Assembly: GCA_964399055.1 (NCBI GenBank)
Contig: CAYNPJ010000001.1
Span: 582,935-646,934 of the forward strand
Direction of reading: 5' to 3'
Source of the DNA: an uncultured Ignavibacteria bacterium
GTDB lineage: Bacteria; Zixibacteria; MSB-5A5; DSPP01; RBG-1
Length of the DNA: 64,000 bases
The translations under genes were made by a program, and so were the position numbers. This document shows, piece after piece, positions 31,725 to 48,528 of this stretch; the stretch's first letter is position 1, and every line of letters starts with the position of its first letter. The notes under the pieces were generated by a model that searched no databases, had not been told where the DNA came from, and saw nothing but the letters and a program-made list of their open reading frames with translations.

Positions 31725-31760
31725 TTCTATGAATAGTAGATTAATCTAAATGTAAAAATC

Positions 31761-32292: not shown

Positions 32293-32516
32293 TGGGGAAG
32301 TATCCAAACTTTTTGGATACTCAAAAGAAGTTGCTTTGACTAAAAGCTTATTATATCATTTCTTTATTTACGAATCATCTGTCGAGACTTGGGAGCCATG
32401 GGAATATTGGGACCTTTATTCTGACATGTATGGAGTAACAAGTGCGTACTCAAGATGAGAACTTTTTGTTTACACGAATTAGAGCCAAAACGATCTAACA
32501 GTTAAAGGACCCAAGA

Positions 32517-33365: not shown

Positions 33366-33540
33366 TTGATGCCTTCAGCTTGTGTCAAAAACATCAATAC
33401 ACAGACATGCATAAGTTCTTGGCAACTTGTTAAAAGTAAATTTATAGATATGTTATTTAATTTACAGAATGGATCAATAGGTTTGGCTTACATTGATTTT
33501 TTCAATCAAAATCCTAACATTCTTTGACTGAGGAGGTGGA

Positions 33541-34101: not shown

Positions 34102-34132
34102 ACGAAAAGTGAACAAATTGTAGATCGAAAAG

Positions 34133-34618
34133 ATGAAAAGAGTATTGATAAGCCTATTGTTCATAGCGGTATCCCCGCTTTTCATAATTTTTCATTTGAT
34201 AGGTTGTAATAAATCAACAGTTCCGTTGCCATTTACAGATATAACCGTAACTGATTCGTTGGGTAACGTAATATCCGGTGACCGCTATGATTGGTGTGGG
34301 GGATGTGGAGGTTTAATACCAAGCTGCTACTCTTTCTACCCGGCCTATCCGAACCCTGCCACTGATAGTATCATTCTTTGGTATGGCATACCCCAGCTTT
34401 CCCTAGTCAGTCTGACAATTCGCAACATCTATGGTCAGAAGGTCATAACTCTTTTGGATTATGAACAGCAGGACCCGGATTATCATTTTGTGACATGGTA
34501 TCTTCAAGATTGGATGTCAAATAAAATTCCCTCAGGAATTTACAGGGCTAGGCTCGAATGTTTTTCAAGTGATAAGAAACTAATTTTTGACTGTGAGGGT
34601 GACATAGAAGTAAAGTAG
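34133..34618 (+). CDS. hypothetical lipoprotein
   Basis: Signal peptide with lipobox LIGC, Cys-rich (WCGGCGG). Confidence 0.35.
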   Translation: MKRVLISLLFIAVSPLFIIFHLIGCNKSTVPLPFTDITVTDSLGNVISGDRYDWCGGCGGLIPSCYSFYPAYPNPATDSIILWYGIPQLSLVSLTIRNIYGQKVITLLDYEQQDPDYHFVTWYLQDWMSNKIPSGIYRARLECFSSDKKLIFDCEGDIEVK

Positions 34619-34624
34619 TGGTTA

Positions 34625-35506
34625 GTGAGGCAAGTATACATGGAAGGCTCATCTCGCTTCTTAAAATGGCTATTCTTGATGCAGGTGATAATATGTTTAG
34701 TAGCGAGTCTTAAGGCACAGCCACTTTTACTCTCACTTACTCAAGTCGTAGAGGATACTTCTCAATCGCAGGTCGATACTGTCGATTTCAAGCAATCCTT
34801 AGTAAGCCCCGATACGATAATCCCACAGCTCTCTTTCCGTAACGCAGACATTCGTGATATCTTTGATGCTTTGGCTAAAACCTACAATCTCAACCTCTGG
34901 ATAGATGAAAAAGTTCAAGGGAAAACCACTCTCCACTTGGTCAATGTCTCACTCAACAGCGTGTTTGAATTCTTGGCTCAGCAGAATCAATTAGTCTATG
35001 AAAAATCGGACAACATAATCAAGGTATACAAGGCTCCTCCTCCGCCTCCTGAGCCTCTGAAGATTTTCTATTCGCTCAGTTTCCTTTCGGTTGACTTGAA
35101 GGATGCAGACCTGGCTGAAGTTATCAGGACTCTGGTTAAGGAGAGTAAAGAAAACATAGTCATAGAGGCCGGGGTTATAGGCAGAATAAGTGGCACCCTT
35201 GAGTCAATAGAGTTTGAAAAGGGTTTAAAAGCCCTGATGATTTCCAATGGTTATGTGGTCAGAAAGATTGAGGGGATTTACCACATTGACCGGCTGCCCA
35301 CCGAGCAGCAGGCCCCTACTTTCAAAGGGGTTTATTCAGTCAGCTACAAAGATGACAAGCTCAATATAGATATCGGCAATGCCCAACTATCCAACCTTGT
35401 CCGCCAGATAGCCGAGATGGCCAAGCTGGATATTTTCGTATATGGAGACCTGCAAGGGCAGATTTCGGTCTTTCAGCCGGAGATTCCGTGTCTTCGTCAC
35501 TTGTGA
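34625..35506 (+). CDS. STN/secretin-N-domain protein
   Basis: LSFRNADIRDIFDALAKTYNLNLWIDEKVQGKTTLHLVNVSLNSVFEFLAQQNQLVY fits the secretin/TonB short N-terminal (STN) domain. No secretin barrel domain present. Confidence 0.45.
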   Translation: MRQVYMEGSSRFLKWLFLMQVIICLVASLKAQPLLLSLTQVVEDTSQSQVDTVDFKQSLVSPDTIIPQLSFRNADIRDIFDALAKTYNLNLWIDEKVQGKTTLHLVNVSLNSVFEFLAQQNQLVYEKSDNIIKVYKAPPPPPEPLKIFYSLSFLSVDLKDADLAEVIRTLVKESKENIVIEAGVIGRISGTLESIEFEKGLKALMISNGYVVRKIEGIYHIDRLPTEQQAPTFKGVYSVSYKDDKLNIDIGNAQLSNLVRQIAEMAKLDIFVYGDLQGQISVFQPEIPCLRHL

Positions 35507-35603
35507 ATCAAATCACAAAAAGCTCCTTCTCAAGCGGAAAAATAACCCCCTTTTTACTACCAAAAACCAGCATTTTACCCCTTTTTTGCTATACGAGTGA
35601 ACC

Positions 35604-35680
35604 CGTCATTGCGAGGAGTCCCGTCTTCGACCCTGAGGAGCTCAGACCCGAAGGGAGCTTGTCGAGGGACGACATGGTAA
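35604..35680 (+). repeat. MITE-like repeat sharing its core with the insertion at 46345-46444
   Basis: Starts with CGTCATTGCGAGGAG (same as 29874). Core GTCTTCGACCCTGAGGAGCTCAGACCCGAAGGGAG (35623-35657) is nearly identical to 46367-46399. Confidence 0.4.
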
Positions 35681-35865
35681 TCTGTTTTTAAAACCTCACC
35701 CATCCCTCTCCTAGTAGGAGAGGGTGTAAGATTTCCTCCCCTAAGAGGGGAGGGCTAGGGAGGGGTTTTTTCTACTGAAAGGGGCTTTCTTATTTTGAGT
35801 TTCGTTTTATAACCCTTTGCCTGAACTAATGTTCAGAGAAATGTTTCACGTGCAACAATTTTGCC

Positions 35866-35899
35866 TAATAAAAAAGGCGTCCCGACTTGTCGGGACGCC
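35866..35899 (-). terminator. rho-independent terminator for the minus-strand operon
   Basis: GGCGTCCCGAC-TTGT-CGGGACGCC followed, on the minus strand, by a T-run. Confidence 0.5.
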
Positions 35900-35920
35900 C
35901 TTCACACTGATTGTTGCTAA

Positions 35921-36481
35921 TTAACCGCGTTTCACCCCATATTCCCTTTCATCGTCGTCGCGGTCCTTCTTCTCCTTGGATTTAACCTTCTTGCTGACTC
36001 TTTCCCAGCGCTCAGAGGCCTCTTTGTTTTTGGGGTTGAGGGTCATGGCCATCTGGTACTCTCTTTCAGCATCCCGATATCTTCCAATGTATTCCAGGGA
36101 GATGCCGATGTGCAGTCTGACCCTGGAGAGCCAGACTTTATCGCCAGAATTATACTCAATGGCCAGGCGGAAGTGCTCAATGGAGTCGTTGTATTTTTTC
36201 CAGCGCTGATAGGTCAGCCCCAGGTAGAAGTAAGCCTCCCAGTTGCGGGGGTCTTTGTCAATGGCCAAGCGGAACTGTTCAGTAGCCTGTTTATAGTGCC
36301 CTTTGTTTAACTGTTTGAGCCCGTTGTCCACATGCTTCTGGGAAGCAATGGCCTGGCCTTTGTTCTTGGCCGGGGGCGGAGCCGGTTTCTCGGTCTCAAC
36401 GATGACCACCTTGCGGGTAGTGCAGCCGGAGAAGGCGGCTAAGGTTGCTAAGGATAACAGCAGGACGGCAAATCTTTTCAT
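35921..36481 (-). CDS. TPR-repeat lipoprotein
   Basis: Lipobox AFSGC. TPR-like repeats (AYFYLGLTYQRWKKYNDSIEHFRLAIEYN...). Confidence 0.65.
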   Translation of the reverse strand: MKRFAVLLLSLATLAAFSGCTTRKVVIVETEKPAPPPAKNKGQAIASQKHVDNGLKQLNKGHYKQATEQFRLAIDKDPRNWEAYFYLGLTYQRWKKYNDSIEHFRLAIEYNSGDKVWLSRVRLHIGISLEYIGRYRDAEREYQMAMTLNPKNKEASERWERVSKKVKSKEKKDRDDDEREYGVKRG

Positions 36482-36533
36482 ACTTGCTCCTCTCTTTTAT
36501 TATCCTATATATCGGCAGAAGGTTTTGAAGAAT

Positions 36534-37688
36534 TTACGGCTGATTGCGGCGCAGGATTTGGACTAGTAGCTCAATTTCGTCAGAGGTGTTGTAAAAATGG
36601 GGCGAGAGGCGCAGGCACTTTTCCCGGAAGGAGCAGATGATTTTGTTTTTCATCAACTTCCGGTGCAACGCCTCTGCATTAGGGCAGGTGAAGGAGAGGA
36701 TGGCGGAGCGATGTTCTGATTTAAGGCTGGATTTGATTTCGTAAGGAGAGTCCTGCAGATATTCAATTAGAGGGTCGAGTAGCTGCCGGGTATGTCTTTC
36801 AATATTAGAGACTCCGATGCCGCTAATCAGTTTCAGAGAGTTCGCTAGAATGTAAAGCAGGGCATAGGGGTAGGTGCCGATTTCAAATTTTCTGGCTGAG
36901 AGAAAAGGGGGCTTGTCATAATGACTCAATTCTTCAAATTTCTCTTTCCAGTCCACTCCCAGCCAGCCGAAGAAGACCGATTTCAATCTCCTCTGAAGTT
37001 TTTCCGAGGCATAGAAGAAGGCTGTTCCAGGAGAGGACAAAAGCCATTTGCTGGCGCCACAGGAGAGGAAGTCTATCCGGCATTTATTGACATCCAGAAT
37101 CTGATTACCCACGCCTTGAATGCCATCCACCACAAAAATGATTCCTCTTTCCTGGCAGATTTTTCCGATGGCCTCCAAGTCATTCTTATAGCCGTTGAAA
37201 TATTGAACGAAGCTCAAAGAGAGAACTCTAACAGTTTGGTCAATTGCCTTTAGAAAGTCATCAATCGAAAAGAATCCGTTTCTGCTCTTGATAAATTTAA
37301 CTTTAACGCCGTCCTGCCGGAGATTGAGCCAGGGGTAGACATTGGCCGGGAATTCGATGTCGGATAACAAGACGGTGTCACCCCTTTTCAATTTCAATCC
37401 CTGAGCTACTACATTTAAGCCATAAGAAGTGTTGGGAGCGATGCCGATTTCGGAAGCCTTAGCCTTTATCAGGCTGGCAGCTAAGTTCCGCGATTCCTCC
37501 AGAACTGAGAATTGATATTTGTGGCTGGTGGGTATGTTTTCCAGAAGAAGATAACGATAATAGTCCTGTATAGCTTTATAAGAACTCAAAGGAATTGGAC
37601 CATCTGAGGCGTGGTCGAAATAAATCACATTTTTGACGAAAGGAAATTCTTTACGATAAAATGCGGGACTAAATCTCTTAGCCTTCAA
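36534..37688 (-). CDS. class V aminotransferase-fold PLP-dependent enzyme (cysteine desulfurase/SufS-like)
   Basis: PLP-lysine region SCGASKWLLSSPGTAFFYAS. Aminotransferase class V architecture. Confidence 0.7.
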   Translation of the reverse strand: MKAKRFSPAFYRKEFPFVKNVIYFDHASDGPIPLSSYKAIQDYYRYLLLENIPTSHKYQFSVLEESRNLAASLIKAKASEIGIAPNTSYGLNVVAQGLKLKRGDTVLLSDIEFPANVYPWLNLRQDGVKVKFIKSRNGFFSIDDFLKAIDQTVRVLSLSFVQYFNGYKNDLEAIGKICQERGIIFVVDGIQGVGNQILDVNKCRIDFLSCGASKWLLSSPGTAFFYASEKLQRRLKSVFFGWLGVDWKEKFEELSHYDKPPFLSARKFEIGTYPYALLYILANSLKLISGIGVSNIERHTRQLLDPLIEYLQDSPYEIKSSLKSEHRSAILSFTCPNAEALHRKLMKNKIICSFREKCLRLSPHFYNTSDEIELLVQILRRNQP

Positions 37689-38113
37689 TTGAAGAAGTAG
37701 CCGAAGGTGCCAAAAATCAAAAAGAGTTTAAGCAGGCGCCAGAGAAGTTGATGCAGCCAGAAAGTCAGGGATAGTTTCACTGAAGTAGCCAGCCAGAGCA
37801 TGTCCGGAAAAGAGCCCAGCATAAAGACCAAAAGAGCCACAAATAGGCCGGCTTTGATTCCGGAAAAAGGGATGAAGGAGAAAATCAGGCTGTAGATAAA
37901 ACCCGGGAGAATGACTTCCCACAAGATCGACTGCAGAATCAGTTCAAAAATATCTACCGGGTGAGTGCGGGCCGGCTTGATTACCACAGCCGGAACTGTC
38001 TCTGATACTTTCAGAGCCCGGGCGGTCAGGCGCGACAGAAAAATCGAGAGGGTCAAAAAAAGACTGGCCAAAAGAACGGAGAGAACAAAGGGCTGGATTA
38101 ACATCAAATCCAC
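37685..38113 (-). CDS. hypothetical polytopic membrane protein
   Basis: 142 aa with four hydrophobic helices. Overlaps both neighbours by 4 nt, indicating an operon. Confidence 0.35.
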   Translation of the reverse strand: MDLMLIQPFVLSVLLASLFLTLSIFLSRLTARALKVSETVPAVVIKPARTHPVDIFELILQSILWEVILPGFIYSLIFSFIPFSGIKAGLFVALLVFMLGSFPDMLWLATSVKLSLTFWLHQLLWRLLKLFLIFGTFGYFFN

Positions 38114-39087
38114 TTCTGCTCTCTATACCACAAAATTGTCTCTTGGGCGCCGGTTTTGAAATCATACTCAGGCTGAAAACCGAGTTCCTGCCTGGCCTTG
38201 GTGATGTCGCAGACCCAGAGCTGATAATTTAGCTCTTTAATCTTGCGCCGGGTGAGGTAAAAACTTTTCCTGGAAACTCTCGCCAAGATGTCGGCGCCTG
38301 CTGCCAGAATATACAAAATCCATTTGGGTACAGTCAGGTTGCGAAATTTTTTCCCCTGCACTTCAGCTAAAACTTTTCCAGCCTCCAGCCAGGTGTAAAC
38401 CTGACCGTCGCTTAAGAAATAAGGTTGTCCTAATGCTCGCCTGGATTCAGCGGCCAGGATGATGCCTTTGACCAGGTCTTTGACATGAATTAAGGAGAAA
38501 CGGTAGTCCCCTTTGCCCAAGACCGGCATAATCCCCCATTGAATGACCTTGAAAATGCTCAGAAGCTGTTTATCCCTGGGCCCGTAAATACCCGGCGGCC
38601 TAATCACCGTGACCGGAAATTTCTCCGAATAGTGAAAGGTCTCTCTTTCCCCGGCCAGCTTGCTCTGTCCATAAACCGAAGTGGGATTGCACAGGTCAGA
38701 TTCCTTTTTAGGCTTTCCATTAAGACTGGGCCCGGCAGCAGCCAGACTGGAGATGTAAACAAATCTCTTCAAAGGGAGATGATTTTCCCAGGCCACTTCC
38801 AAGAGATTTCTAGTCCCTTCATAGTTCACTTTGAGAAAAAGGGCCGGGTTATGGCTCTTAATCAAACCGGCGGTGTGAAAAATGTACTCGTAATCAACCA
38901 GAATTTTTTTCAGCGACTCTTTGTCCTGTATATCTCCGAAGACAAATTCTACTCCCTTGTCAACCAGCCAGTTCAGATTACTGCTCTTTCTGACCAGACA
39001 GTGGACTCTATAGCCCCGACGGACCAATTCTTCAGCCAGGTGGCTGCCTACAAAACCACTGGCGCCAGTTACCAGACAGAGAGACAT
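38104..39087 (-). CDS. NAD-dependent epimerase/dehydratase (extended SDR)
   Basis: Rossmann motif LVTGASGFVGSHLAEELVRRGYRV and catalytic YGQSK. Confidence 0.85.
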   Translation of the reverse strand: MSLCLVTGASGFVGSHLAEELVRRGYRVHCLVRKSSNLNWLVDKGVEFVFGDIQDKESLKKILVDYEYIFHTAGLIKSHNPALFLKVNYEGTRNLLEVAWENHLPLKRFVYISSLAAAGPSLNGKPKKESDLCNPTSVYGQSKLAGERETFHYSEKFPVTVIRPPGIYGPRDKQLLSIFKVIQWGIMPVLGKGDYRFSLIHVKDLVKGIILAAESRRALGQPYFLSDGQVYTWLEAGKVLAEVQGKKFRNLTVPKWILYILAAGADILARVSRKSFYLTRRKIKELNYQLWVCDITKARQELGFQPEYDFKTGAQETILWYREQKWI

Positions 39088-39169
39088 AATCCGCTTGACA
39101 AAAGTGTTTGTTTAGCCTAAGATAGGCAAGTTTTGCCGAAATGTAAACTGTCTTAACTTACTAAAATAT

Positions 39170-40357
39170 ATGGACATATTTCAGAAGTGCTACGGCTTTA
39201 CCGCAGCCAGGGAGGTGATGGCCTTAGGACTCTATCCTTACTTCCATCCCCTCTCCTCCGGGCAGGACACCGGCGTGGTCATTGACGGCAAGCCGATGAT
39301 AATGATCGGCTCCAACAATTACCTGGGCCTGACCTCCCATCCGGAAGTAAAAGAGGCGGCCATGAAAGCCGTGGAGACGTACGGCTCAGGCTGTTCCGGC
39401 TCCCGTTTTTTAAACGGCACTTTGGACCTGCACGTAGAATTAGAAGAAAAGTTGGCCAGATTTGTCAGAAAAGAGGCGGCTCTGGTCTTCTCCACCGGGT
39501 TCCAGACTAATCTTGGGACCATCTCCGCCTTGGTCACCAAGCATGATTACGTCATCACTGACCGGGCCGACCACGCCTCGATTTTCGACGCCTGCCGGCT
39601 CTCTTTCGGCGATACGATTAAATATAGGCACAACGACATGGAGGATTTAGAAAGGGTTTTAGCAGGCTTAGAAGAAGAAGCCGGCAAGTTAATCGTGGTC
39701 GACGGCGTATTCTCCATGGAAGGAGATTTAGCCAATCTGCCGGAAATCGTGCGCATAGGCAAAAAGTACGGGGCCAGAATCATGGTGGACGACGCGCACG
39801 GTATTGGCGTCATGGGGAAAAATGGCCGGGGAACTGCCGAGCACTTCGGCGTGGAAGATAAAGTTGATTTAATCATGGGAACCTTCTCCAAGTCTTTTGC
39901 CTCCTTGGGCGGATTCATTGCCGGAGAAGAGGCGGTCATCCACTATCTCAAACACATTTCCCGGGAGCTGATTTTTTCGGCCTCCATGCCTCCGGCTGCA
40001 GTGGCCGCCACTCTCAAGGCCCTGGAAATCATCCAGAAAGAGCCGGAGAGAAGAGCCCGTTTATGGGAAATTACTCACCGGATGCACCGGGAGTATCGCA
40101 AATTAGGTTTCGACATCGGCCCGACCGAAACCCCGGTTATCCCCATTCTAATCGGAGAGGATATGGACACCTTCCGCTTCTGGAGGGAGCTGTTCGACAG
40201 CGGAATCTTTGCCAACCCCATCATCTCTCCGGCAGTCCCCAAAGGCAAGGCTTTAATCCGCACCAGCTATACTGCTACCCACACTGACCAGCAGATGGAC
40301 AAGGTTCTAAAGGTCTTCGCCTGCGTGGGAAAGAAATTAGGCGTACTGCGCAATTAG
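39170..40357 (+). CDS. alpha-oxoamine synthase family PLP enzyme (8-amino-7-oxononanoate synthase / serine palmitoyltransferase-like)
   Basis: Class II aminotransferase with GTFSKSF PLP-lysine region. Typical BioF/Kbl/Spt length and conservation. Confidence 0.8.
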
Positions 40358-40363
40358 ACTTGC

Positions 40364-41482
40364 GTGCCGATTCGAGAAGTCCGCAATAAATTAGACCTAA
40401 GGAAATTCACTCTCCTCCCCTGGAAAATCTATAAGAAAGACCCACACTGGGTGGCGCCCTTAATCTCAGAGCGCCTGAGATTTTTCAGCCCTAACAGAAA
40501 TCCCTTTTTCAAGCACGCGGAGGTAAAATATTTCTTAGCCGAGAAGAACTCTAAAGTTGTGGGCCGCATCGCCGGCATAGTCAATCACGCGCACAATCAG
40601 TATCACCAGGATAAGGTAGGCTTCTTCGGACATTTTGAGTGCACCGATGACTATGAAGTCGCCTTAGAACTCTTCGATGCTGCTAAAGAATTTCTTAAGT
40701 CCAAGGACATGGAATACATGCGGGGCCCGGCCAATTTCTCCTCCAATGACGATATGGGCTTCTTGGCCGAAGGGTTTGATTCGCCGCCGGTCTTGATGAT
40801 GCCTTACAATCCGCCTTACTATTTAGAGTTTGCGGAAAGATACGCCATGAACAAGGTCAAGGACTTATACGCCCTGTACATGCACAAGGAGAGCCTACCC
40901 CCGGAGAGAATGAATGCCATAGCAGAGAGAATCAAAAGAAATGAAAAGATTACCATTCGGAAGATTGACCCCAAGAATCTGGAAAAAGAAATCACTTTAA
41001 TCAAGGAAATCTACAACTCGGCCTGGAGCAAGAACTGGGGCTTTGTCCCCATGACTGAAGAGGAGATTGATTTCTTGGCTGACGACCTGAAGAAGGTTTT
41101 AGACCCGGATATCGCTTATTTAGCTTTCGTGGAAGATAAACCTGCCGGATTCTCTTTATCCCTGCCGAACATCAATCCGGTCTTGCAGAAACTGAAAGGG
41201 AGCATCTTGCCTTTGGGGTGGCTGAAGTATCTCTGGTACACCAAGGTCAATAATTTAGTCGATGGACTGCGGGTGATTACCTTAGGGGTGAAGCCGGAGT
41301 ATCAGAAAAAGGGGATTGACGTGGTCTTCTATGTGGAGACTTTTCAAAAGGGGATAGCAAAGGGATACAACTGGGGGGAGTTTAGCTGGATTTTGGAGGA
41401 CAACTACCTGATTATTAAGCCCTTGGAGGCGATGGGGGCGAGGGTGTATAAGGTGTATAGGATGTATGAGATGAGGATTTAG
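40364..41482 (+). CDS. hypothetical protein, possibly a GNAT-fold (FemAB/BioF2-like) acyltransferase
   Basis: 372 aa, coupled to the alpha-oxoamine synthase. Weak resemblance to FemAB-like acyltransferases. Assignment uncertain. Confidence 0.3.
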   Translation: MPIREVRNKLDLRKFTLLPWKIYKKDPHWVAPLISERLRFFSPNRNPFFKHAEVKYFLAEKNSKVVGRIAGIVNHAHNQYHQDKVGFFGHFECTDDYEVALELFDAAKEFLKSKDMEYMRGPANFSSNDDMGFLAEGFDSPPVLMMPYNPPYYLEFAERYAMNKVKDLYALYMHKESLPPERMNAIAERIKRNEKITIRKIDPKNLEKEITLIKEIYNSAWSKNWGFVPMTEEEIDFLADDLKKVLDPDIAYLAFVEDKPAGFSLSLPNINPVLQKLKGSILPLGWLKYLWYTKVNNLVDGLRVITLGVKPEYQKKGIDVVFYVETFQKGIAKGYNWGEFSWILEDNYLIIKPLEAMGARVYKVYRMYEMRI

Positions 41483-41588
41483 AGATGGCAAGTCCGAGCT
41501 TATACTCTCGTACCGCTCACGTTATCTTCTTGTAAAACAATAACATAGCACTGACGTCTTCTAGATCTAAAAATATAATAGATTTTTC

Positions 41589-41617
41589 TTGACAGTTCGT
41601 ATATGTTAGGTATATTT
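41589..41617 (+). promoter_or_regulatory. sigma70-like promoter for the AT-rich three-gene operon
   Basis: TTGACA, 16-nt spacer, then TATATT, about 40 nt upstream of the 41659 start. Confidence 0.3.
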
Positions 41618-41658
41618 GTAATAGTTAACGATATTTCAAAATATAGCACATATTTATT

Positions 41659-41874
41659 ATGGATGAAAACAAAAGAGACAGGTTCTTAAGATTAGCAGCA
41701 AAACGAACGAATTCGATCTTAAAAAAGATTCGCGTATTAGGTAACTGTGCTAATAGAAATTACTACGAATACACAGAAGAGGACTTGCGGAAAATATTCG
41801 CGGCTATTGAGAAGCAGCTTCAAGCTGTAAAGTCGAAATTTCAGCCTTCAGGGGAAAGGGAGTTCAAACTCTGA
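41659..41874 (+). CDS. hypothetical small protein (first gene of island operon)
   Basis: 71 aa, helical and basic (FLRLAAKRTNSILKKIRVLGN). Stop overlaps the next start (TGATG). Low GC. Confidence 0.4.
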   Translation: MDENKRDRFLRLAAKRTNSILKKIRVLGNCANRNYYEYTEEDLRKIFAAIEKQLQAVKSKFQPSGEREFKL

Positions 41875-42572
41875 TGCAGCCGATACATGAAATGTTCCCG
41901 GGGTTACCTGAGTTTTCACCAGATACCTACTTGAAGATTGGCATGGATGATTTGGTAACTGTATCGCTTCACTTTCTATTGGAATCAGGAAAGCCACCCA
42001 CTTTTGAGAACTTAGTTGCGCTTGCTTACTCATTGTTTCCCCAACGATTTTCGATGGTTGGTTATGCTCAGTGGCCCGATTCTGCAATTATTAACAAATG
42101 TTGGCTTAGGTGCAGGACTGATAAGAAGCTGATTTCTGGAAACGTTGCATCCGGTTTTCAACTCACGCCAAAGGGCAAGTTCGTTACAGAAAAAACGCTC
42201 GCGAAACTTCTACCTTCGTTGGAATTTGACAAAGACGGAAAAGGAAAACTTCAGAGAAAAGGCGGAGACAGAAGGACAGCAGCCGGGCGAGTGGTTTCTA
42301 GGGTCGAAAAAAGTACTGCATTCAATAAGTACAAGTCTGATGGTCACGTTGAAAACGTATCAGAGTACGAACTCTGTGATATTCTGTACTGCACTTTAGA
42401 AAGTTCCGCAGAGACTCTTAAAAAAAATTATGAGTTGGTCAGCCAATATTTAAAGGAGTATTCCAGAGATGACTTGGTCAAATTCATCGACATGCTCAAA
42501 GTAAAATTCAGCAGTAAATTTCTGGCCTCTAAAATTCGTGGCGGAATGCTTCCAAAGAAAGGGCATTGTTGA
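41874..42572 (+). CDS. hypothetical protein (second gene of island operon)
   Basis: 232 aa, no recognisable motif. Translationally coupled on both sides. Confidence 0.45.
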   Translation: MQPIHEMFPGLPEFSPDTYLKIGMDDLVTVSLHFLLESGKPPTFENLVALAYSLFPQRFSMVGYAQWPDSAIINKCWLRCRTDKKLISGNVASGFQLTPKGKFVTEKTLAKLLPSLEFDKDGKGKLQRKGGDRRTAAGRVVSRVEKSTAFNKYKSDGHVENVSEYELCDILYCTLESSAETLKKNYELVSQYLKEYSRDDLVKFIDMLKVKFSSKFLASKIRGGMLPKKGHC

Positions 42573-42583
42573 AGGAGTATAGC

Positions 42584-44467
42584 ATGGTAATACTTCAAAA
42601 GAAGAAACTCCAAGCGAGTTCAAGGGCGTTTCAAACTCTAGCATCTCAAGCAATAGGAAATGACCTTCTAAAGGGCTTAGTTGAACTTATAACAAATAGT
42701 GATGATAGTTATTTTCGACTTGAGAAAAATGGTGTAACGACTTCCGGTAAAATAGAGATCGAAATTGAGAGACGGCCCAGAAGTAGACAAACTTTGGTGC
42801 GAGTTCGGGACTTCGCACAGGGTATGGATAATCAGCAGATGGATGAATGTATTGCTCATAATGGTGATGATGTTAGTGGCGACACTGGACGAGGCTTTTT
42901 TGGTATGGGTTTAAAAGATACGATCATAAATTTTGGCAAAGGAGAAATTTATTCAGTCAAAGACGGTAGATATTATAAATGTCGACTTGAAGGAGATGAT
43001 TTTACTCCATTTCTACCACAAAGGGTTGATGCCAAGCTAAGGAAGGAACTCGGCATTGCAAATAATGGTACTCTCGTCTCGATTTTAGTCATGAATCCTA
43101 GAGTGAGGATACCTCAATTCGATACCTTGCGCGAAGATTTACAAAACCATGTTCTATTAAGATTGATAATGAAGGATCCAAATAGAACTATAATCCTCCG
43201 CGACCTGCGTACCGGCACAGAAAATACCTTATTCTACCAGGAACCAGAAATAGAAGAGATTTTGTACGACGATAATTTTGGATTGGATGACTATCCTGAG
43301 GCGGACCTCCATCTTACAATTAAAAAGGCTAGGGGAGCTTTCCAATTGAGTCAAAATGGCTCTTGTAGAACAGGTGGAATATTATTTACAACTAGAAGAA
43401 CGGTTCATGAATCTACGATGTTGGAATATGATTCAGACCCTTTTGCGGCGAAACTATTTGGGGAGCTGAGATGTGAATACATTTACGAATTGCAAAAAAC
43501 AGCCGAACCAGTCGTAGACCGAAATAGGGATGGACTGAGAAGAAATCATCCTTTCACTAGATCCTTATTTAGGAAAATATTTCAGATATTAAAATTGATA
43601 GTTGATGACGAGAAACAAAAGCAAAAAGACCGTGAACGTGAATTAGAAAATGAAAACACGCGACGTCGATTTCGAGAAGCAGTACGTGAGTTGAATCAAA
43701 TTGCTTCAGTAGAGCTAGAGGATATCGGTGGTCTCGGTCCTGGCCCTGGCCCGATTACGAAAAAGCCGAAGTTTCCTGCAAATGATTTTGAATTCATTCC
43801 CGATACGTATAGGATAGTTGTTGGAAAACGCCAGGATTTGAATCTCAGGTTAATGCTGGGCCCGCTTCTGCGCACTGGTTCTATTGTAAATTTCTCGACG
43901 GAATGTACGGGTCTAACTGTGATTAATCCGGTAGAGAAAATACCAGAATCGGACGATTCGACATTGCCGGTTAATATGAAGGTGACAATAGAGGCTCATA
44001 GGCATGGGGCAGAGGGGTTTGTGGCTGCCTCCTGCGGCGACAAAAAAGCCGTTGCTCTCGTTGAGGTAGTTTCTCTTCCAGACGATATTGAAAGACCCCA
44101 TCAACCGAGGAGAGCTGGACTATTCAGAGATATCAAGTACGAGAACCAGGACAATGTTCAACGGGCAAGATTTGAACAAGCTACAGGGATTATCTACATA
44201 AATACATCTGCGCCGTCGGTAAGGCTGTATTTTGGCCCTGAGGGTGAGGGTCAAGACCTAGGTCCTAATAGAGTATTACAGGCTGAGCTTGTAACTGAGC
44301 TCGCATGTAGAGAGATAGCCAAGATTAAGCAGTCAAAATCGCTTATTGATCTCCCGCCCGGCATTGAGCCAATAGACGCGTTTTACAATGAGATCAACAG
44401 GCTAAAGGGAGCATACGCGGAAAAAATTCATGAATGTCTTGTCGATTCAAAATTCAGAAGAAGTTGA
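42584..44467 (+). CDS. GHKL/Bergerat-fold ATPase-domain protein (HATPase_c-like N-terminus, large unknown C-terminal region)
   Basis: RBS AAGGAG before the ATG at 42584. N-box-like LVELITNSDDS, then G1/G2-like HNGDDVSGDTGRGFFGMGLKD. Roughly 450 aa of uncharacterised C-terminal sequence. Confidence 0.55.
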   Translation: MVILQKKKLQASSRAFQTLASQAIGNDLLKGLVELITNSDDSYFRLEKNGVTTSGKIEIEIERRPRSRQTLVRVRDFAQGMDNQQMDECIAHNGDDVSGDTGRGFFGMGLKDTIINFGKGEIYSVKDGRYYKCRLEGDDFTPFLPQRVDAKLRKELGIANNGTLVSILVMNPRVRIPQFDTLREDLQNHVLLRLIMKDPNRTIILRDLRTGTENTLFYQEPEIEEILYDDNFGLDDYPEADLHLTIKKARGAFQLSQNGSCRTGGILFTTRRTVHESTMLEYDSDPFAAKLFGELRCEYIYELQKTAEPVVDRNRDGLRRNHPFTRSLFRKIFQILKLIVDDEKQKQKDRERELENENTRRRFREAVRELNQIASVELEDIGGLGPGPGPITKKPKFPANDFEFIPDTYRIVVGKRQDLNLRLMLGPLLRTGSIVNFSTECTGLTVINPVEKIPESDDSTLPVNMKVTIEAHRHGAEGFVAASCGDKKAVALVEVVSLPDDIERPHQPRRAGLFRDIKYENQDNVQRARFEQATGIIYINTSAPSVRLYFGPEGEGQDLGPNRVLQAELVTELACREIAKIKQSKSLIDLPPGIEPIDAFYNEINRLKGAYAEKIHECLVDSKFRRS

Positions 44468-44585
44468 TTCCCTAGCTTGGCCGGATAATAAAAATCTTAA
44501 AATTGCTGCGACAATACATAAAGCCAGCCCTTATTTATAGTTCAACAAGTTCACTATAAGAGGACTGGCCTTCGGTCAGCATCCT

Positions 44586-44634
44586 TCGACTGCGCTCGGT
44601 ATATGCTGAGGCGGTAGGATTCGAACCTACAATC
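44586..44634 (-). repeat. direct repeat of the tRNA-Asn 3' end plus downstream flank (att-like remnant A)
   Basis: TTCGACTGCGCTCGGTATATGCTGAGGCGGTAGGATTCGAACCTACAATC matches the 3' 29 nt and flank of the tRNA at 48457-48528. Confidence 0.55.
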
Positions 44635-44703
44635 CTTCCCCAGAGCTTGCTATTGTATTCAAGACCGAGTAACTTACCCCCCAGACCATTCAAATTGAGA
44701 GAC

Positions 44704-46332
44704 ATGAAAAACGCCTTACTAATCTGTCCTGAATTCTCGCCCCTGGGATTCTGGAACTACAAGGGCGTTTGCAGATTAGTCGGGGCCAAATATCCGGCTG
44801 CGCCTCTGGGGATCATAACTCTGGCGGCGCTTCTGCCGCAGGAATGGGATATCAGGCTGATCGACATGAACGTAACCGAATTACATGATTCTGATATCGA
44901 ATGGGCCGACCTGGTTTTTATCGGGGGCATGCTGCCGCAGCAGGTTGCGTTTTTGAAGCTGATTGACAGGGTTCACGCCCGCGGTAAGAGAGTTGTTTCC
45001 GGCGGGCCTGACCCAACCTCACAACCCGAAGTCTATAAGAGTTCTGATTATCTGGTTTTAGGTGAAGCCGAAGATACTATCCATTCATTCCTGAATGATC
45101 TATACCGGGGCGCGCAGAAAGGGGTATATTTCCCATCTGAGAATAGACCTGACCTTAGCAGCAGTCCTGTTCCACGGTTTGATTTACTCACTTTTAATGA
45201 TTACCTGATGGTCGGCATCCAGTTTTCCCGGGGCTGTCCCTATAACTGTGAATTCTGCGATATAATTGAGCTTTACGGCCGGGTACCGCGTACAAAATCA
45301 CCTCAGCAAATTGTAAACGAGCTTGGTGTACTTTACGACCTGGGGTACAGAGGTCATATTGATTTTGTAGATGACAATTTCATAGGCCATAAAGGAAAAG
45401 TAAAACAGACTCTGAGAGAGCTCAAGAAATGGTCGCAGGCACATAATTATCCATTTTTCTTCTCGACCGAGGCGTCTGTTAATCTCGCAGATGACCAGGA
45501 GCTTCTCGGACTGATGCGGGATATAGACTTCAGGTACGTATTCATTGGCATAGAATCGGTAAGCGAGGAAGTACTGCGATCCAATCAGAAAAGACAGAAC
45601 CTCAATCGAAAGCTCTCTGACGATCTTCATAAAATCTACAATTATGGAATGGTGGTTAACGGGGGCTATATCGTCGGATTCGATAATGAAACCAGCCAGA
45701 CCACCAGGCTAATTGCCGACTCTATCGAACAGAGTAAGATATGTATGGCTATGGTAGGTTTGCTATACGCCCTCCCCGGTACTCAGCTGACTCGTAGACT
45801 GGAACAAGAAAACCGGCTATCTGAGCATAGCAACCGGTTGGATCCAGGCAACCGGGATAACGTTGACCAGGGCACCAGCGGACTTAATTTTGCCACCCAA
45901 AGACCCAGAAATGAGATAATAGATGATTTTGTGTACATACTGAAGAAAACATACAATGCAAGGAAATACTTCAATAGATGTTTGAGGCTGGGCCGGGCCT
46001 TGAAAGTCAGTAGGAAACACCGGCCTCCATTTTCCAGGAAAGTGATCGCCGCGCGTGCCTTAATCCGGCTGGTCAGACAGCTGGGGTTCTGGCCTTCGAC
46101 CGCTTACTATTTTTGGAGAAACAGCCTGATCATGTTGCTGGTCCGCCCGTCCGCTTTAGCTGAAGTAGTCAATCTTATGGCGATGTACATTCATTTTAGC
46201 AAACAATCAGAATATATCATTGAGCTGATGGCTCGTAATTCGCGGAATGGCGATGAACTGGATAAAGCGGCCACTGCCGCTGTGGCGAAGGAAGCAAAAG
46301 AGATTCTCAGCGGTCAGCCTAACCATCACTGA
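44704..46332 (+). CDS. B12-binding domain radical SAM protein
   Basis: N-terminal cobalamin-binding-like domain (ALLICPEF...IGGMLP). Radical SAM CxxxCxxC SRGCPYNCEFCDI. Start set at the internal ATG 44704. Confidence 0.8.
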   Translation: MKNALLICPEFSPLGFWNYKGVCRLVGAKYPAAPLGIITLAALLPQEWDIRLIDMNVTELHDSDIEWADLVFIGGMLPQQVAFLKLIDRVHARGKRVVSGGPDPTSQPEVYKSSDYLVLGEAEDTIHSFLNDLYRGAQKGVYFPSENRPDLSSSPVPRFDLLTFNDYLMVGIQFSRGCPYNCEFCDIIELYGRVPRTKSPQQIVNELGVLYDLGYRGHIDFVDDNFIGHKGKVKQTLRELKKWSQAHNYPFFFSTEASVNLADDQELLGLMRDIDFRYVFIGIESVSEEVLRSNQKRQNLNRKLSDDLHKIYNYGMVVNGGYIVGFDNETSQTTRLIADSIEQSKICMAMVGLLYALPGTQLTRRLEQENRLSEHSNRLDPGNRDNVDQGTSGLNFATQRPRNEIIDDFVYILKKTYNARKYFNRCLRLGRALKVSRKHRPPFSRKVIAARALIRLVRQLGFWPSTAYYFWRNSLIMLLVRPSALAEVVNLMAMYIHFSKQSEYIIELMARNSRNGDELDKAATAAVAKEAKEILSGQPNHH

Positions 46333-46477
46333 GGCGGTAGGATTGGCCTGTTCCGCCTTCGGCTCTGTCTTCGACCCTGAGGCTCAGACCCGAAGGGAGG
46401 TCCTCGACTCGAAGAGAGCCAGCCGAAGGCTACGTCGAGGAAAACCTACAATCTTCCGGTTAACAGCCGGCTGCACT
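46329..46477 (-). repeat. tRNA-Asn fragment (3' end through D-arm), interrupted by a roughly 100-nt MITE-like insertion in the T-loop (att-like remnant B)
   Basis: CTGAGGCGGTAGGATT [insert 46345-46444] CCTACAATCTTCCGGTTAACAGCCGGCTGCACT is identical to the tRNA at 48457-48528 over 16 plus 34 nt, but diverges in the acceptor 5' strand. Confidence 0.5.
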
Positions 46478-46624
46478 CCCCTGGTGCCAATTAGAGCGAG
46501 ATCAAAGCCGGCTCTACATTAGCAAGCTCAAAAAAAGCGTTGACATTCCCAATATTCGGCCTAAATTTCAATAGAGGTCGTTTCAGCCTATTTAGATAGT
46601 AAACTAACAGCCAAGGAGGAATAT

Positions 46625-48259
46625 ATGTCAATGTCTTCATTAAGGCTGGGGTTAATCTTAGTCATCGCATTAATCCACGCATCCGTAATTTTCAGCCAGG
46701 AAGAGGTGTACGAAGCCTGGGTAGCCCGCTACAACGGCCCGGGTAATTCTGACGACCAGGCCACAGCCCTGGTCCAGGATAACAGCGGGAACGTATACGT
46801 GACAGGTTTTAGCAGAGGAAATGGGACAGGCTGGGATTATGCAACCATAAAGTACTCTCCTGCCGGAGAGGAGTTATGGGTAGCCCGCTACAACGGGCCG
46901 ATAAGCTTTAACGATTTGGCCTACGCATTAGCAGTAGACCAGAGCGGAAATGTGTACGTTACCGGTGGAAGCTTTGACAGCAGCGGGCTCGATTATGCCA
47001 CGATTAAATATTCTCCCTCCGGGGAGAGTCTGTGGGTGAGAAGATATAACGGGCCGGGTGATTCGGCTGACTGGGCCAATGACCTGGCAGTTGACCAGGA
47101 GGGCAACGTATACGTGACCGGTCAGAGCGGCGGAATCGGCAGCCAGGATGATTATGCTACCATTAAATACTCTCCTAATGGAGACAGTCTCTGGGTGAGA
47201 AGATACAATGGCATGGGTAATGAGAACGACGTTGCTAAGGCTTTAGCAGTGGATGACAGCGGAAATATTTTGGTAACTGGCTATAGCGTTGATAGTGTCC
47301 GCTCAGCCGATTTCCTGACCATTAAATATTCCCCTAGCGGGGATACTCTGTGGGTGAGAAGATTAAACGGTCCGGGAAACATGTCCGACAACGCGAATGA
47401 TATAGCCTTGGATGACAGCGGCAATGCGTATGTGACAGGTCATAGCTGGGGTGTCGGCACTTCGCACGACTATCTCACGGTCAAGTACTCGGCTGCCGGG
47501 GCGATGTTGTGGGCCAGCAGATATGACGGTCCGGATGGCAATACGGAATCCGCCTATGCCATATCGGTTGACCCTTATTACAATGTCTGTGTGACCGGTT
47601 ACAGCCTGGGCAGTACCAGCTCAATGGACTATGCCACCGTAAAATATTCCTCTGACGGAGACACCGTCTGGGTAAGAAGGCATAATGGTTCAGACAATGC
47701 TGCCGACCTTGGCAATGCCATAGAGGCAGACCATCTCGGCAATGTCTATGTGACCGGTGAGAGCCCTAACAGTGGTTCTTTCACCGATTTTGTAACCATA
47801 AAATACAGCTCATCAGGCAACAGCACATGGTTGAAACGTTACAACGGCCCTGGAAATGGTAGCGATCGAGCCGAAGATTTGGAATTAGACGACAGTGGTA
47901 ATGTGTATGTAACTGGCCACAGCGCTGGTGATGAATCTTCCGATGATTATGCCACTATTAAGTATTCTCCCTGCTCTGCTGAGAGCCCCTTAGCAGGTGA
48001 TGCCAGCTCGGACCAAACTTATACTTTGGTAGATATCATTGCCACCGTGAACTATATTTTCAATAGACCCGGTTTCGCGGCCTGTTCCTCTAACTCCGCC
48101 ATTTGCTGGTTATCCGACAGATTGTGTCGGGGGGACTGGAATGGCTCTGGTGATGTGACCTTAGGGGATGTGATTCAGGGAGCAAACTTCATTTTTGATA
48201 AATCCGGCGGTCCTTGGTCTCCGGTTTCTTCCTTGGGCTGCTGTCCTTATTCTCCTTAA
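46625..48259 (+). CDS. secreted SBBP beta-propeller-repeat protein with dockerin-like Cys-rich C-terminal domain
   Basis: Signal peptide. At least 8 tandem roughly 50-aa repeats with the YVTG / DYATIKYS / LWVRRYNGPGN motifs (SBBP type). Conserved C-terminal roughly 90 aa ending in CCPYSP. Confidence 0.6.
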   Translation: MSMSSLRLGLILVIALIHASVIFSQEEVYEAWVARYNGPGNSDDQATALVQDNSGNVYVTGFSRGNGTGWDYATIKYSPAGEELWVARYNGPISFNDLAYALAVDQSGNVYVTGGSFDSSGLDYATIKYSPSGESLWVRRYNGPGDSADWANDLAVDQEGNVYVTGQSGGIGSQDDYATIKYSPNGDSLWVRRYNGMGNENDVAKALAVDDSGNILVTGYSVDSVRSADFLTIKYSPSGDTLWVRRLNGPGNMSDNANDIALDDSGNAYVTGHSWGVGTSHDYLTVKYSAAGAMLWASRYDGPDGNTESAYAISVDPYYNVCVTGYSLGSTSSMDYATVKYSSDGDTVWVRRHNGSDNAADLGNAIEADHLGNVYVTGESPNSGSFTDFVTIKYSSSGNSTWLKRYNGPGNGSDRAEDLELDDSGNVYVTGHSAGDESSDDYATIKYSPCSAESPLAGDASSDQTYTLVDIIATVNYIFNRPGFAACSSNSAICWLSDRLCRGDWNGSGDVTLGDVIQGANFIFDKSGGPWSPVSSLGCCPYSP

Positions 48260-48456
48260 TGAGAATTCTTATCTGAAATTTCAAGGTTCAGAGAATAGGT
48301 ACAGAAACGGCAGGATTGGCCTTGTCCGAGCCAGCGGAGGTTGTTCGGGGGAAACTTCTTGTATTAGGTACAGCCATCCCTCCACTCATTTCATTCGCTC
48401 GGGATGAATTTCTCGCTGCGCTCGAAATTCAATGCCTCGACTTCGCTCGGCACAAG

Positions 48457-48528
48457 CTGAGGCGGTAGGATTCGAACCTACAATCTTCCGGTTAACAGCC
48501 GGCTGCACTGCCCTTGTGCTACGCCTCA
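48457..48528 (-). tRNA. tRNA-Asn (anticodon GTT)
   Basis: Cloverleaf folds by hand. Acceptor TGAGGCG/CGCCTCA, U8, D-stem GCAC/GTGC, anticodon loop CTGTTAA, T-arm GTAGG-TTCGAAT-CCTAC. One G-A mismatch at the base of the anticodon stem. No encoded CCA. Confidence 0.6.

Follow-up and report, generated by a model that had tools for sequence, protein, structure and literature searches.

What does a compact, AT-rich run of three genes, ending in the gene for a GHKL-type ATPase and placed near a tRNA-Asn gene, do for the uncultured bacterium that carries it? The locus lies at positions 41589 to 44467 of the window, the whole stretch of 64,000 nucleotides analysed here, and a first-pass annotation had offered it as a candidate defence operon. 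GHKL-S5 ATPases are known from mismatch repair, topoisomerases, chaperones and eukaryotic gene silencing. In prokaryotes, ATPases of this type (MORC, paraMORC1-5) are predicted to act in restriction-type systems (Iyer, Abhiman and Aravind, 2008; PMC2292703); GHKL domains are present in proven defence proteins, such as VcSduA (PMC12137116), and pairs of a GHKL protein with a winged helix-turn-helix (wHTH) partner can control immune operons, as in CapK/CapS (PMC13373217). The reading favoured here, with a confidence somewhat short of even, sees the locus as a cassette that is complete in itself, moves horizontally and belongs to the biological-conflict (defence-type) kind.

Gene layout and insertion site

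Three plus-strand open reading frames, genes A, B and C, lie behind one promoter in the window, and all three are real genes. The features of the locus, with the subdivisions of B and C predicted from sequence and structural models, are:

41483 to 41588, no strand: left border; DNA from here on is missing in L096, the closest syntenic relative of the host
41589 to 41616, plus strand: sigma-70-type promoter, TTGACA-16 nt-TATATT, 43 nt 5′ of gene A
41659 to 41874, plus strand: gene A, 71 aa, pI 9.9
41874 to 42572, plus strand: gene B, 232 aa, putative DNA-binding adaptor (winged helix, aa 24-112; basic disordered linker, 113-135; helical domain, 136-216; conserved tail RGGMLP)
42572 to 42577, plus strand: Shine-Dalgarno sequence AAGGAG, sharing one base with the B stop, 6 nt before the C ATG (read from the sequence)
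42584 to 44467, plus strand: gene C, 627 aa from the ATG or 633 aa from an upstream TTG
42584 to 43498, plus strand: N-terminal ATPase module of C, aa 1-305, with GHKL/Bergerat domain (about 1-200) and S5-fold transducer (201-305)
43499 to 44467, plus strand: C-terminal half of C, aa 306-627
44581 to 44634, no strand: right border, a direct repeat (54 nt, 89% identity) that takes in the tRNA-Asn 3′ end and 24 nt of the flank downstream of it
48456 to 48528, minus strand: tRNA-Asn(GTT)

The sequence facts that the first-pass annotation had given for the layout were borne out. The genes are tightly coupled, as it had said: A and B overlap in cTGATGc, and AAGGAG starts on the last base of the TGA stop of B (42570-42572). 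The sigma70-like promoter scores 11/12, the top match within 41.4-44.7 kb, where promoter-like matches overall show no excess over chance (6 observed, 7.3 expected). Of 17 homologous loci, which come from different phyla, 10 have an exact TTGACA no more than 120 nt upstream of gene A, and because of this recurrence the cassette apparently carries its own promoter; beyond the TTGACA box, no shared operator was found upstream of A in the 17 loci. The block is AT-rich, as had been claimed: its GC content is 0.413 against 0.464 ± 0.024 in windows of the same size (the lowest 4%), and the GC3 of A, B and C is 0.36-0.43 against 0.52-0.67 in flanking genes. GC is just as low in two other stretches of the window.

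The block was horizontally acquired, as the annotation had supposed; this rests on its absence from L096, its atypical GC3 and its slot downstream of tRNA-Asn. Synteny with L096 ends at 41480, the end of a 372-aa gene (blastn, L096 55-5765 to window 35787-41480), and no homologues of A, B, C or the radical-SAM gene were found in L096. There, the 372-aa gene is followed by one ORF, a tRNA-Asn-like gene and an SBBP-repeat gene; the same slot in the window holds A-B-C, a tRNA fragment, a radical-SAM gene and a pseudo-tRNA. Since L096 has the same flank up to 41480 but no cassette, the cassette is an insertion in a variable slot downstream of tRNA-Asn.

The annotation's picture of a classic tRNA-linked island stands only in part. 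The repeat of the tRNA-Asn 3′ end, said to lie about 120 nt past the block, begins 114 nt after the C stop (repeat family D6) and includes an exact 30-nt copy of the 3′ end at 44605-44634 (2 exact matches in the window, 0 expected), so that adjacency to a tRNA 3′ end is found along with absence from a close relative. The other marks of an island, an integrase and repeats at both ends, were not found: from 36 to 57 kb of the window no integrase or recombinase is encoded, and there is no tRNA 3′ repeat at the left border of the cassette, the copies being at 44605 and 48456 only. Because the left-border repeat is missing, the two copies enclose the radical-SAM and SBBP genes instead of A-B-C, and the cassette lies outside the interval between the repeat and the intact tRNA-Asn. 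Within that interval, an interrupted tRNA-Asn copy (46331-46487) was considered as a tRNA with an intron; it is recognised by neither Rfam nor ARAGORN, has a folding z-score of -0.68, and is treated as a decayed copy.

Domain architecture of the three products

From its motifs and predicted fold, C is identified as a GHKL ATPase of the GHKL+S5 type with an intact ATP site. The Bergerat-fold motifs noted in the first pass are real and hold across the family, and in alignments of 62 sequences each ATP-binding residue is either invariant or conserved to at least 90%: motif I (ExxxN) comprises E34 and N38, motif II (DxGxG) D76 and G80, motif III (the Gly-rich ATP lid) R103, G104, G107 and G109, and motif IV G162 and the conserved Thr T163. 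The Bergerat alpha/beta sandwich fold is present; directly after it comes the S5-fold transducer, which supplies a conserved basic residue, as in GHKL-S5 clamp ATPases. A profile of C matches the Grp94/Hsp90 N-domain (E = 2e-4), the Pfam HATPase_c match is weak (E = 0.005), and PDB searches by sequence returned nothing for B or C. The C-terminal half begins with a conserved loop (R315-x-G317...H322) and continues with a 60-residue helix (323-382), an Ig-like beta-sandwich (402-540) and a helical domain (560-619); neither a nuclease motif nor a conserved D...ExK-type motif was found there in the 62-sequence alignments.

The N-terminal module of C is MORC/SMCHD1/Hsp90-like, and its closest structures are the ATPase modules of eukaryotic MORC2, MORC3 and SMCHD1 (PDB 5ix1, 5of9, 6mw7), to which sequence identity is only 13-16% (15-16% for MORC2 and MORC3). 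C has none of their CW, chromo-like and SMC-hinge domains and, unlike them, is prokaryotic and operon-encoded with a dedicated wHTH partner. The MORC S5 signature GhXhhpXXRhl is not exactly matched: in GGILFTTRRTV (aa 264-274; family consensus GGILIxSxRA) the Arg is one position off, as judged by comparing the patterns alone.

Gene B had been described as lacking any recognisable domain, a view that structure overturns: a winged helix and a helical domain can be recognised. Tyr64 is invariant, and in homologues the linker widens into long, basic K/P-rich repeats that are H1- or AlgP-like. Pfam searches with B, with its long homologues and with the alternative genes found upstream of B gave no match. 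Topo VI- or Spo11-like cleavage by the winged helix is unlikely, as the second domain is all-helical and there is no Toprim.

Gene A encodes the basic 71-aa protein that had been reported, its product is predicted from sequence to be helical, and its family alignment and HMM share the motif RF.RLA..RTN..L.K.R.LGNC.N...Y.Y.E.D..KIF; no Pfam family was found for A or any of its 26 homologues.

A GHKL protein beside a DNA-binding protein might signal or regulate as a pair, whether as a sensor of histidine-kinase type with a DNA-binding regulator or as a controller of a neighbouring operon in the manner of CapK/CapS. The HATPase_c match, the winged helix of B and the CapK/CapS precedent of a GHKL and wHTH pair that regulates immune operons speak for such a pair; CapK/CapS, like B-C, is linked to mobile immune loci. 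The sensor kinase with a response regulator, which the first-pass annotation had named as a refutation of its proposal, is not what was found: A, B and C contain no HisKA/DHp or Response_reg (receiver) domain, and the predicted fold of C is the S5-containing one of MORC, Hsp90, MutL and topoisomerases, not that of a kinase. The CapK/CapS form was likewise rejected. CapK is an HTH-STAS-GHKL serine kinase of anti-sigma-factor type and CapS a STAS-wHTH protein, encoded upstream of an immune operon (PMC13373217), whereas in C the GHKL domain is N-terminal and precedes S5, B is a wHTH with an all-helical C-terminal domain, neither has a STAS domain (Pfam), the genes stand in the opposite order, and neither an operon nor single genes are conserved downstream of B-C among the loci compared. 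Signalling in either form is therefore disfavoured and extremely improbable.

Distribution, partners and neighbours

Relatives of C were found in at least 319 of 185,579 species genomes, a rare and patchy distribution that covers both prokaryotic domains, including Acidobacteriota, Chloroflexota, CPR, Nitrospirota, Bacteroidota, KSB1 and Planctomycetota among bacteria and Nitrososphaerota, Bathyarchaeia, Micrarchaeota and Nanoarchaeota among archaea. This patchy spread across phyla implies lateral transfer, and pseudogenised copies occur (L191). The family is confined almost wholly to uncultured lineages. Among 72,556 plasmids and 50,697 phage genomes there is no B-C module, and neither B nor C has a match in PHROGs; three large IMG/VR contigs carry B-C pairs. 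Mostly uncultured hosts, together with absence from the plasmid and phage collections searched, are probably why experimental screens and PADLOC missed the family.

The conserved core is the B-C pair, and A is an optional third component. Across 80 species genomes, drawn from four archaeal lineages and over 20 bacterial phyla, B stands immediately 5′ of C in 63, usually overlapping it or spaced by 1-20 nt, and the identity matrices of B and C co-vary (r = 0.91, 58 loci). In 14 of 67 loci (~21%), and likewise in the closest relative (L189), gene A immediately precedes B in the order A-B-C, which agrees with the co-transcribed trio of the first-pass annotation; strict linkage, by contrast, holds for B-C and not for A, which is found in only about a fifth of loci. 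An early tblastn search of the first 12 loci had suggested that A is not conserved, a result overturned by the HMM search across the 80 genomes. The slot 5′ of B is interchangeable, being filled by A, by HARE-HTH proteins (in Acidobacteriota) or by VapB-VapC pairs, and many loci have no gene in it. Distant GHKL relatives have other DNA-binding partners, a DndB-family protein in one locus (L079) and an alpha-CTD/HhH protein with a gene A homologue in another (L095).

The variable slot bears on whether the cassette is a toxin-antitoxin or addiction module, in which uncontrolled DNA clamping by B-C would be toxic and would be neutralised by A or by the alternative upstream genes. The cassette is compact, self-promoted and mobile, its first gene, small and basic, resembles many antitoxins and regulators, and the slot at times holds true VapBC pairs. 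Against this, about 80% of loci have no A and many nothing in the slot at all; since most loci do without A, B-C must be viable alone, and the components are far larger than typical toxins. Addiction is thus a most unlikely function.

Genes flanking the module vary; the fixed core-genome context that the annotation had also named as a refutation is not observed. In raw counts, most flanking genes are ordinary housekeeping genes, and toxin-antitoxin, methylase, STAND-NTPase or recombinase genes adjoin the module in a minority of loci: PIN (5), MazE (3), Fic (2), type II methylases (7 of 69 loci) and HNH (2 of 69), the last two counted within two genes of the module, along with nSTAND, GmrSD, OLD, ParE, HigB, integrase and serine recombinase genes.

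Such neighbours recall the prokaryotic MORC and paraMORC ATPases (PMC2292703). Like theirs, the GHKL domain of C is N-terminal, has all ATP-binding motifs and is followed by an S5 fold with conserved basic residues; further common traits are a sporadic spread in distant bacteria and archaea, indicative of lateral transfer, C-terminal extensions particular to each family, and occasional adjoining DNA methylases and HNH nucleases. By the same logic, B-C could be an accessory subunit of an unlinked restriction-modification-type system, remodelling or looping DNA and so aiding nucleases or methylases encoded elsewhere or, in some genomes, next to it. Apart from the predicted role of MORC and paraMORC proteins as restriction-modification components, this would fit the methylases of the 7 loci (type II-like), the HNH and GmrSD genes of a few, the HARE-HTH proteins in the upstream slot of Acidobacteriota, whose domain is tied to restriction enzymes, and L095, which joins A and a GHKL module with a D12 methylase. 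Some 90% of loci, however, have no nearby methylase or nuclease, no methylase, helicase or nuclease adjoins the cassette in the window, two of four methylases examined are on the opposite strand, and the SF-II helicase that accompanies ~70% of prokaryotic MORCs has no counterpart among the 25 most frequent Pfam families of flanking genes (69 loci), none of which is a helicase family. The restriction neighbourhood of MORC and paraMORC is thus not matched, and an accessory role in restriction is rather unlikely.

The cassette also differs from MORC and paraMORC operons in its core, which lacks an SF-II helicase, restriction-fold nuclease, TIR domain and methylase, and in its obligate partner, a winged-helix protein whose family Pfam lacks; the long helix, Ig-like and helical domains of C are not among the extensions described for paraMORC1-5. 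VcSduA (type I-D Shedu) combines a GHKL domain, a clamp-like middle domain and a DUF4263 nuclease (PMC12137116). C shares with it an N-terminal GHKL ATPase, a middle domain after it and a mobile defence context, but a Shedu-like GHKL nuclease was rejected, C having no DUF4263 (Pfam, PADLOC), PD-(D/E)xK domain or nuclease motif; VcSduA, moreover, is a single protein without a wHTH partner. PADLOC-DB v2.0 gave no match for A or B and only coiled-coil noise for C (JetA, E = 0.028; Csm2, E = 0.049), and NCBIfam gave none for any of the three. The annotation's failure to name the trio was therefore apt: no named system matches it in PADLOC-DB v2.0, NCBIfam or literature searches. The cassette is a distinct, compact GHKL-S5 version: its dedicated winged-helix partner belongs to an undescribed family, and nuclease, helicase and methylase are all missing.

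Proposed mechanism and related proteins

A defence role for the cassette is plausible on circumstantial evidence. We infer that its core would work as a two-protein machine, made up of the DNA-binding adaptor B and the ATPase C. A C dimer may be held together by its long helix and C-terminal domains, and ATP binding would close the N-terminal ATPase heads, as in MORC, MutL, Topo VI-B and Hsp90. The winged helix and basic linker of B would bind DNA, and either the helical domain or the RGGMLP tail of B could serve to dock it on C, so that the ATP-gated clamp receives or senses the DNA. This clamp might then trap or compact the bound DNA, presumably that of an invader or mobile element, and its use would be blocked without cutting, or it would be flagged for unlinked host nucleases. 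A would be an accessory that the module can do without; it may regulate the module or serve it as an adaptor, or else autoregulate the promoter.

No nuclease, toxin, helicase, methylase or effector domain was found in the conserved core, which thus has no evident way to destroy or discriminate foreign DNA. In a bolder version of the defence reading, which we hold to be unlikely, B-C, with or without A, would be an effector-less immune or silencing system, in which an H1-like adaptor loads a MORC/SMCHD1-like clamp on foreign DNA that is neutralised by ATP-dependent topological entrapment or compaction and not by cleavage. If so, it would be a prokaryotic counterpart, and possibly an antecedent, of eukaryotic MORC/SMCHD1 silencing, with a range that takes in CPR bacteria and DPANN archaea, and giant viruses would have acquired it. 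A defence or silencing role would, in general, show an ATP-gated clamp that acts on DNA without cutting it and would offer a simple two-protein model for MORC/SMCHD1-type mechanisms; should neither role hold, B-C is still a widespread mobile module.

The same features could instead belong to a module that organises the nucleoid or chromatin, or silences genes, for the host or a mobile element (xenogeneic silencing, or element maintenance and partition), by MORC-like compaction with a histone-H1-like basic adaptor. The nearness of C in structure to the chromatin compactors MORC2, MORC3 and SMCHD1, the K/P-rich linkers of B homologues, the lack of an effector domain, the B-C pairs on IMG/VR contigs and the full-length C-like proteins of giant viruses (below) are consistent with such a module. 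Its rare, patchy spread and pseudogenised copies speak against a housekeeping role, and it is absent from sequenced plasmids and phages. This explanation, too, is fairly improbable, and the defence-type cassette is the one preferred here.

Relatives of C extend beyond the more than 300 species of bacteria and archaea. The giant-virus proteins are longer (560-940 aa) and uncharacterised, and no B-like partner was detected on their contigs. Fold similarity to C is full-length in Hokovirus HKV1 A0A1V0SGC9 and Yasminevirus A0A5K0UA26 (Foldseek E of 4e-28 and 2e-25, over alignments of 730-770 columns), and HMM matches in giant-virus proteins, including those on GVMAG contigs, extend over the ATPase module as well as the helical domain at the C-terminus (E of 1e-57 to 1e-81).

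Gene layout and insertion site

Three genes on the plus strand, A, B and C, make up the cassette under study.

Cassette genes
41659–41874, plus strand: gene A, ORF of 71 aa
41874–42572, plus strand: gene B, ORF of 232 aa
42584–44467, plus strand: gene C, ORF of 627 aa

The tight coupling proposed in the first-pass annotation is borne out by the sequence: the end of A and the start of B overlap in TGATG, and AAGGAG follows the B stop codon with a spacing of 6 nt to the ATG of C. The σ70-like promoter proposed there is the top promoter-like site of the region (TTGACA-16-TATATT, 41589–41616; 11/12 match), and an exact TTGACA lies 5′ of A in 10 of 17 homologous loci. The reported drop in GC is likewise real; the cassette region has a GC content of 0.413 where the window averages 0.464 (sd 0.024), within the lowest 4% of equal-sized windows, and GC3 is 0.36–0.43 in A, B and C versus 0.52–0.67 in flanking genes. 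Two more stretches of the window, 6500–10000 and 31300–36000, are as low in GC as the cassette (0.40–0.42) and could have been acquired too; in the latter stretch a weak secretin-N/STN match accompanies several genes lacking Pfam matches.

The cassette, self-promoted from its predicted promoter, is laterally mobile. The closest relative of its flank, contig L096 (protein identity 77–92%), is collinear with the window as far as position 41480, across the genes for an epimerase, an aminotransferase and a 372-aa protein; beyond that point it carries one unrelated ORF, a minus-strand tRNA-Asn-like gene and an SBBP-repeat gene. The same slot in the window holds, in order, A-B-C, a tRNA 3′ fragment, a radical-SAM/DUF4070 gene, a pseudo-tRNA-Asn, an SBBP-repeat gene and the intact tRNA. 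Because L096 shares the flank yet holds other content in the slot, the cassette is an insertion in a variable slot downstream of tRNA-Asn.

Features of the tRNA-Asn slot
44581–44634: 54-nt direct repeat of the tRNA-Asn 3′ end and downstream flank
44605–44634: exact 30-nt tRNA 3′ fragment
44647–46332: radical-SAM/DUF4070 gene
46331–46487: interrupted pseudo-tRNA-Asn, a second decayed copy
48456–48528, minus strand: intact tRNA-Asn(GTT)

The 54-nt repeat begins 114 nt past the C stop codon, close to the 120 nt first estimated. The proposed tRNA-linked island is upheld as an insertion downstream of tRNA-Asn, but no integrase was found at 36–57 kb of the window and no copy of the tRNA repeat at the left border of the cassette; a composite, decayed hotspot is the most apt description. 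The radical-SAM/DUF4070 gene, missing from L096 and lying between the tRNA-Asn 3′ fragment and the pseudo-tRNA, looks like a separate insertion in the same hotspot, and its stop codon overlaps the pseudo-tRNA. The latter has the 3′ end CTGAGGCGGTAGGATT, split by an insert of ~96 nt with inverted repeats from an anticodon/D-arm part (46443–46487) that is 96% identical to the real tRNA; it was not called by ARAGORN or Rfam (folding z-score −0.68). A related junction, GGCAGGATTGGCCTTGTCCG, recurs at 48301–48328, just past the intact tRNA. The tRNA-Asn-like gene of L096 (6425–6542, minus strand) has a 37-nt insertion within the anticodon loop beside the GTT anticodon and could be an interrupted tRNA of unusual type, or else a pseudogene; ARAGORN found no tRNA on that contig. 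SBBP/NHL beta-propeller repeat proteins are encoded at 46625–48259 and 52340–53878, the former gene with an internal DNA periodicity of 159 nt and repeat families D1–D5.

The encoded proteins

In Pfam, C matched HATPase_c only, below threshold (E = 0.005), and it had no significant match in PADLOC, NCBIfam or a PDB sequence search. Homology searching recovered 84 relatives. The Bergerat-fold ATPase motifs reported in its N-terminus hold across a 62-sequence alignment, in which E34, N38, D40, D76, G80, G94 and G109 are invariant and R103, G104, G107, G162 and T163 almost so; together these residues constitute GHKL motifs I to IV. A second alignment, from 62 genomes, was concordant and added R193 and R315 (both 100%), along with conserved R201, H322, P406 and R527; in it the C-terminal half showed no motif of nuclease type. 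The family profile matches the Grp94/Hsp90 N-domain at E = 2e-4.

Domains of C in the AlphaFold model (pLDDT 89)
Residues 1 to ~200: GHKL domain
Residues 201–305: beta-rich domain
Residues 323–382: single 60-residue helix
Residues 402–540: beta-sandwich
Residues 560–619: helical domain

Values listed beside proteins compared with the C model
MORC3: 21.3
SMCHD1: 20.7
MORC2: 20.7
TRAP1: 19.6
ParE: 17.4
Topo VI-B: 17.3
MutL: 16.7

Sequence searches with B gave no match in Pfam, PADLOC, NCBIfam or PDB, but the initial view that it has no recognizable domain is overturned by its predicted model (pLDDT 82), which comprises a winged helix (residues 24–112), a disordered basic linker (113–135) and a helical domain (136–216). 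Thirteen close homologues keep two conserved blocks and an RGGMLP tail. Among 1.8 billion cluster representatives, searching with a profile yielded 813 members, of which the long ones (up to 590 aa) owe their extra length to K/P-rich low-complexity repeats within the linker, where no Pfam domain was found. Since it combines a winged helix with a basic linker, which repeats expand in the longer members, B is predicted to bind DNA and to have a basic, flexible tether. In three homologues of 414–590 aa (P0116, P0124 and P0139) the linker consists of tandem K/P/A-rich repeats resembling histone H1 or AlgP.

The basic protein A (pI 9.9) falls into no Pfam family. A first comparison of 12 loci found no homologues; neighbour clustering in 80 genomes then defined a conserved family of 71–94 aa directly 5′ of B, which an HMM places at 14 of 67 loci and also, as a small gene missed in the annotation, in the Verrucomicrobiae MAG whose B-C is closest to that of the window. 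It accompanies C proteins of ~630 and ~750 aa alike. A close homologue also heads a different cassette (L095, 2535–10753), whose neighbours are a DUF2924 gene and one for a large serine recombinase. This cassette encodes a 524-aa protein with three RNA_pol_A_CTD-like (alpha-CTD/HhH) domains and Sigma70_r4, a 556-aa HATPase_c_3 GHKL protein with no more than distant similarity to C (E = 5e-6), an uncharacterized protein of 295 aa, a D12 adenine methylase and an nSTAND NTPase.

Distribution and genomic neighbours

A pattern scan found C relatives in at least 319 of 185,579 species genomes. Among the best 80 of these, which span more than 20 bacterial phyla (several CPR lineages included) and the archaeal Nitrososphaerota, Bathyarchaeia, Micrarchaeota and Nanoarchaeota, B is present in 67 and immediately 5′ of C in 63; in 4 of the 13 genomes without B the upstream sequence is too short to judge. 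Pairwise identities of B and C correlate (r = 0.91), and B is lacking where C is most divergent (Arthrobacter and others). The three-gene unit originally described thus stands for its B-C part, whereas A occurs at only 14 of 67 loci: the obligate core is a winged-helix protein and a MORC-like GHKL-S5 ATPase with intact active-site residues, and A is an optional third component. In one of these divergent cases, a B-less 758-aa C-like ATPase on an Acidimicrobiia chromosome (L079, 8809–12259), the position of B is taken by a protein of the DndB family with a ParB fold (Pfam E = 7e-97), an arrangement suggesting that such ATPases can exchange one DNA-binding partner for another. Frameshifts split both B and C in an Acidobacteriota genome (L191, 8865–11840), an apparent case of decay of the module in its host.

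The plasmid and phage collections searched yielded no match to C. B-C pairs occur on three large IMG/VR contigs, and C-like genes without B on nine giant-virus MAG contigs (L178–L186, IMG/VR GVMAG), where no B-like partner was found. The top matches in a viral fold library (BFVD) were Hokovirus A0A1V0SGC9 (Foldseek E = 4e-28) and Yasminevirus A0A5K0UA26; the giant-virus proteins (Nucleocytoviricota MAGs, Hokovirus, Yasminevirus; 560–940 aa) resemble C in its ATPase module as well as in its C-terminal helical domain, with HMM E-values of 1e-57 to 1e-81.

Besides A, B and C, the surroundings of the module show no conserved gene.

Pfam/PADLOC neighbours within two genes, 69 loci
N6_N4 or type II methylases: 7
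PIN: 5
HARE-HTH: 4
MazE: 3
Fic/SoFic: 2
HNH: 2
nSTAND3: 2
GmrSD_N: 1

Single loci also have integrase, PIN-TPR-GreABC, DUF5677, NYN, OLD, ParE or HigB genes. Genes of defence or recombinase type flank a minority of loci and lend the proposed defence setting circumstantial support; many neighbours are housekeeping genes. The cassette may alternatively be an addiction module, or a helper of unlinked restriction systems.

Classification and candidate function

C belongs to the GHKL superfamily and to the S5-containing clamp class. It differs from MORC/paraMORC operons in neighbourhood, carries the S5 signature of MORC only approximately, and lacks the defining features of Shedu, CapK/CapS and two-component systems; a signalling role is disfavoured. 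No description of the B-C pairing was found in the literature, and the earlier statement that the genes match no named system agrees with the searches of PADLOC-DB v2.0, NCBIfam and the literature. We place the cassette among candidate conflict systems: it is built on a GHKL-S5 ATPase, its partner protein is of a new family, and it lacks an enzymatic effector.

In the GHKL-S5 proteins MutL, topo II/VI, Hsp90, MORC and SMCHD1, ATP drives N-terminal dimerization around a substrate. Prokaryotic MORC and paraMORC proteins are predicted to work in restriction-type systems (PMC2292703). From these two precedents we infer a clamp in which B would tether DNA to a C dimer; ATP binding would close the dimer on the DNA, which could then be trapped, compacted or passed to other factors. 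A candidate role in defence or conflict fits the patchy distribution of the cassette, its insertion, neighbours and decay, but it contains no effector or discrimination device. As an alternative, it may serve nucleoid or element silencing. At five loci (L030, L048, L054, L061 and L064) AbrB/MazE-type antitoxin and PIN (VapC) genes lie directly 5′ of B-C on the same strand; these loci belong to different phyla, and the linkage is recurrent.
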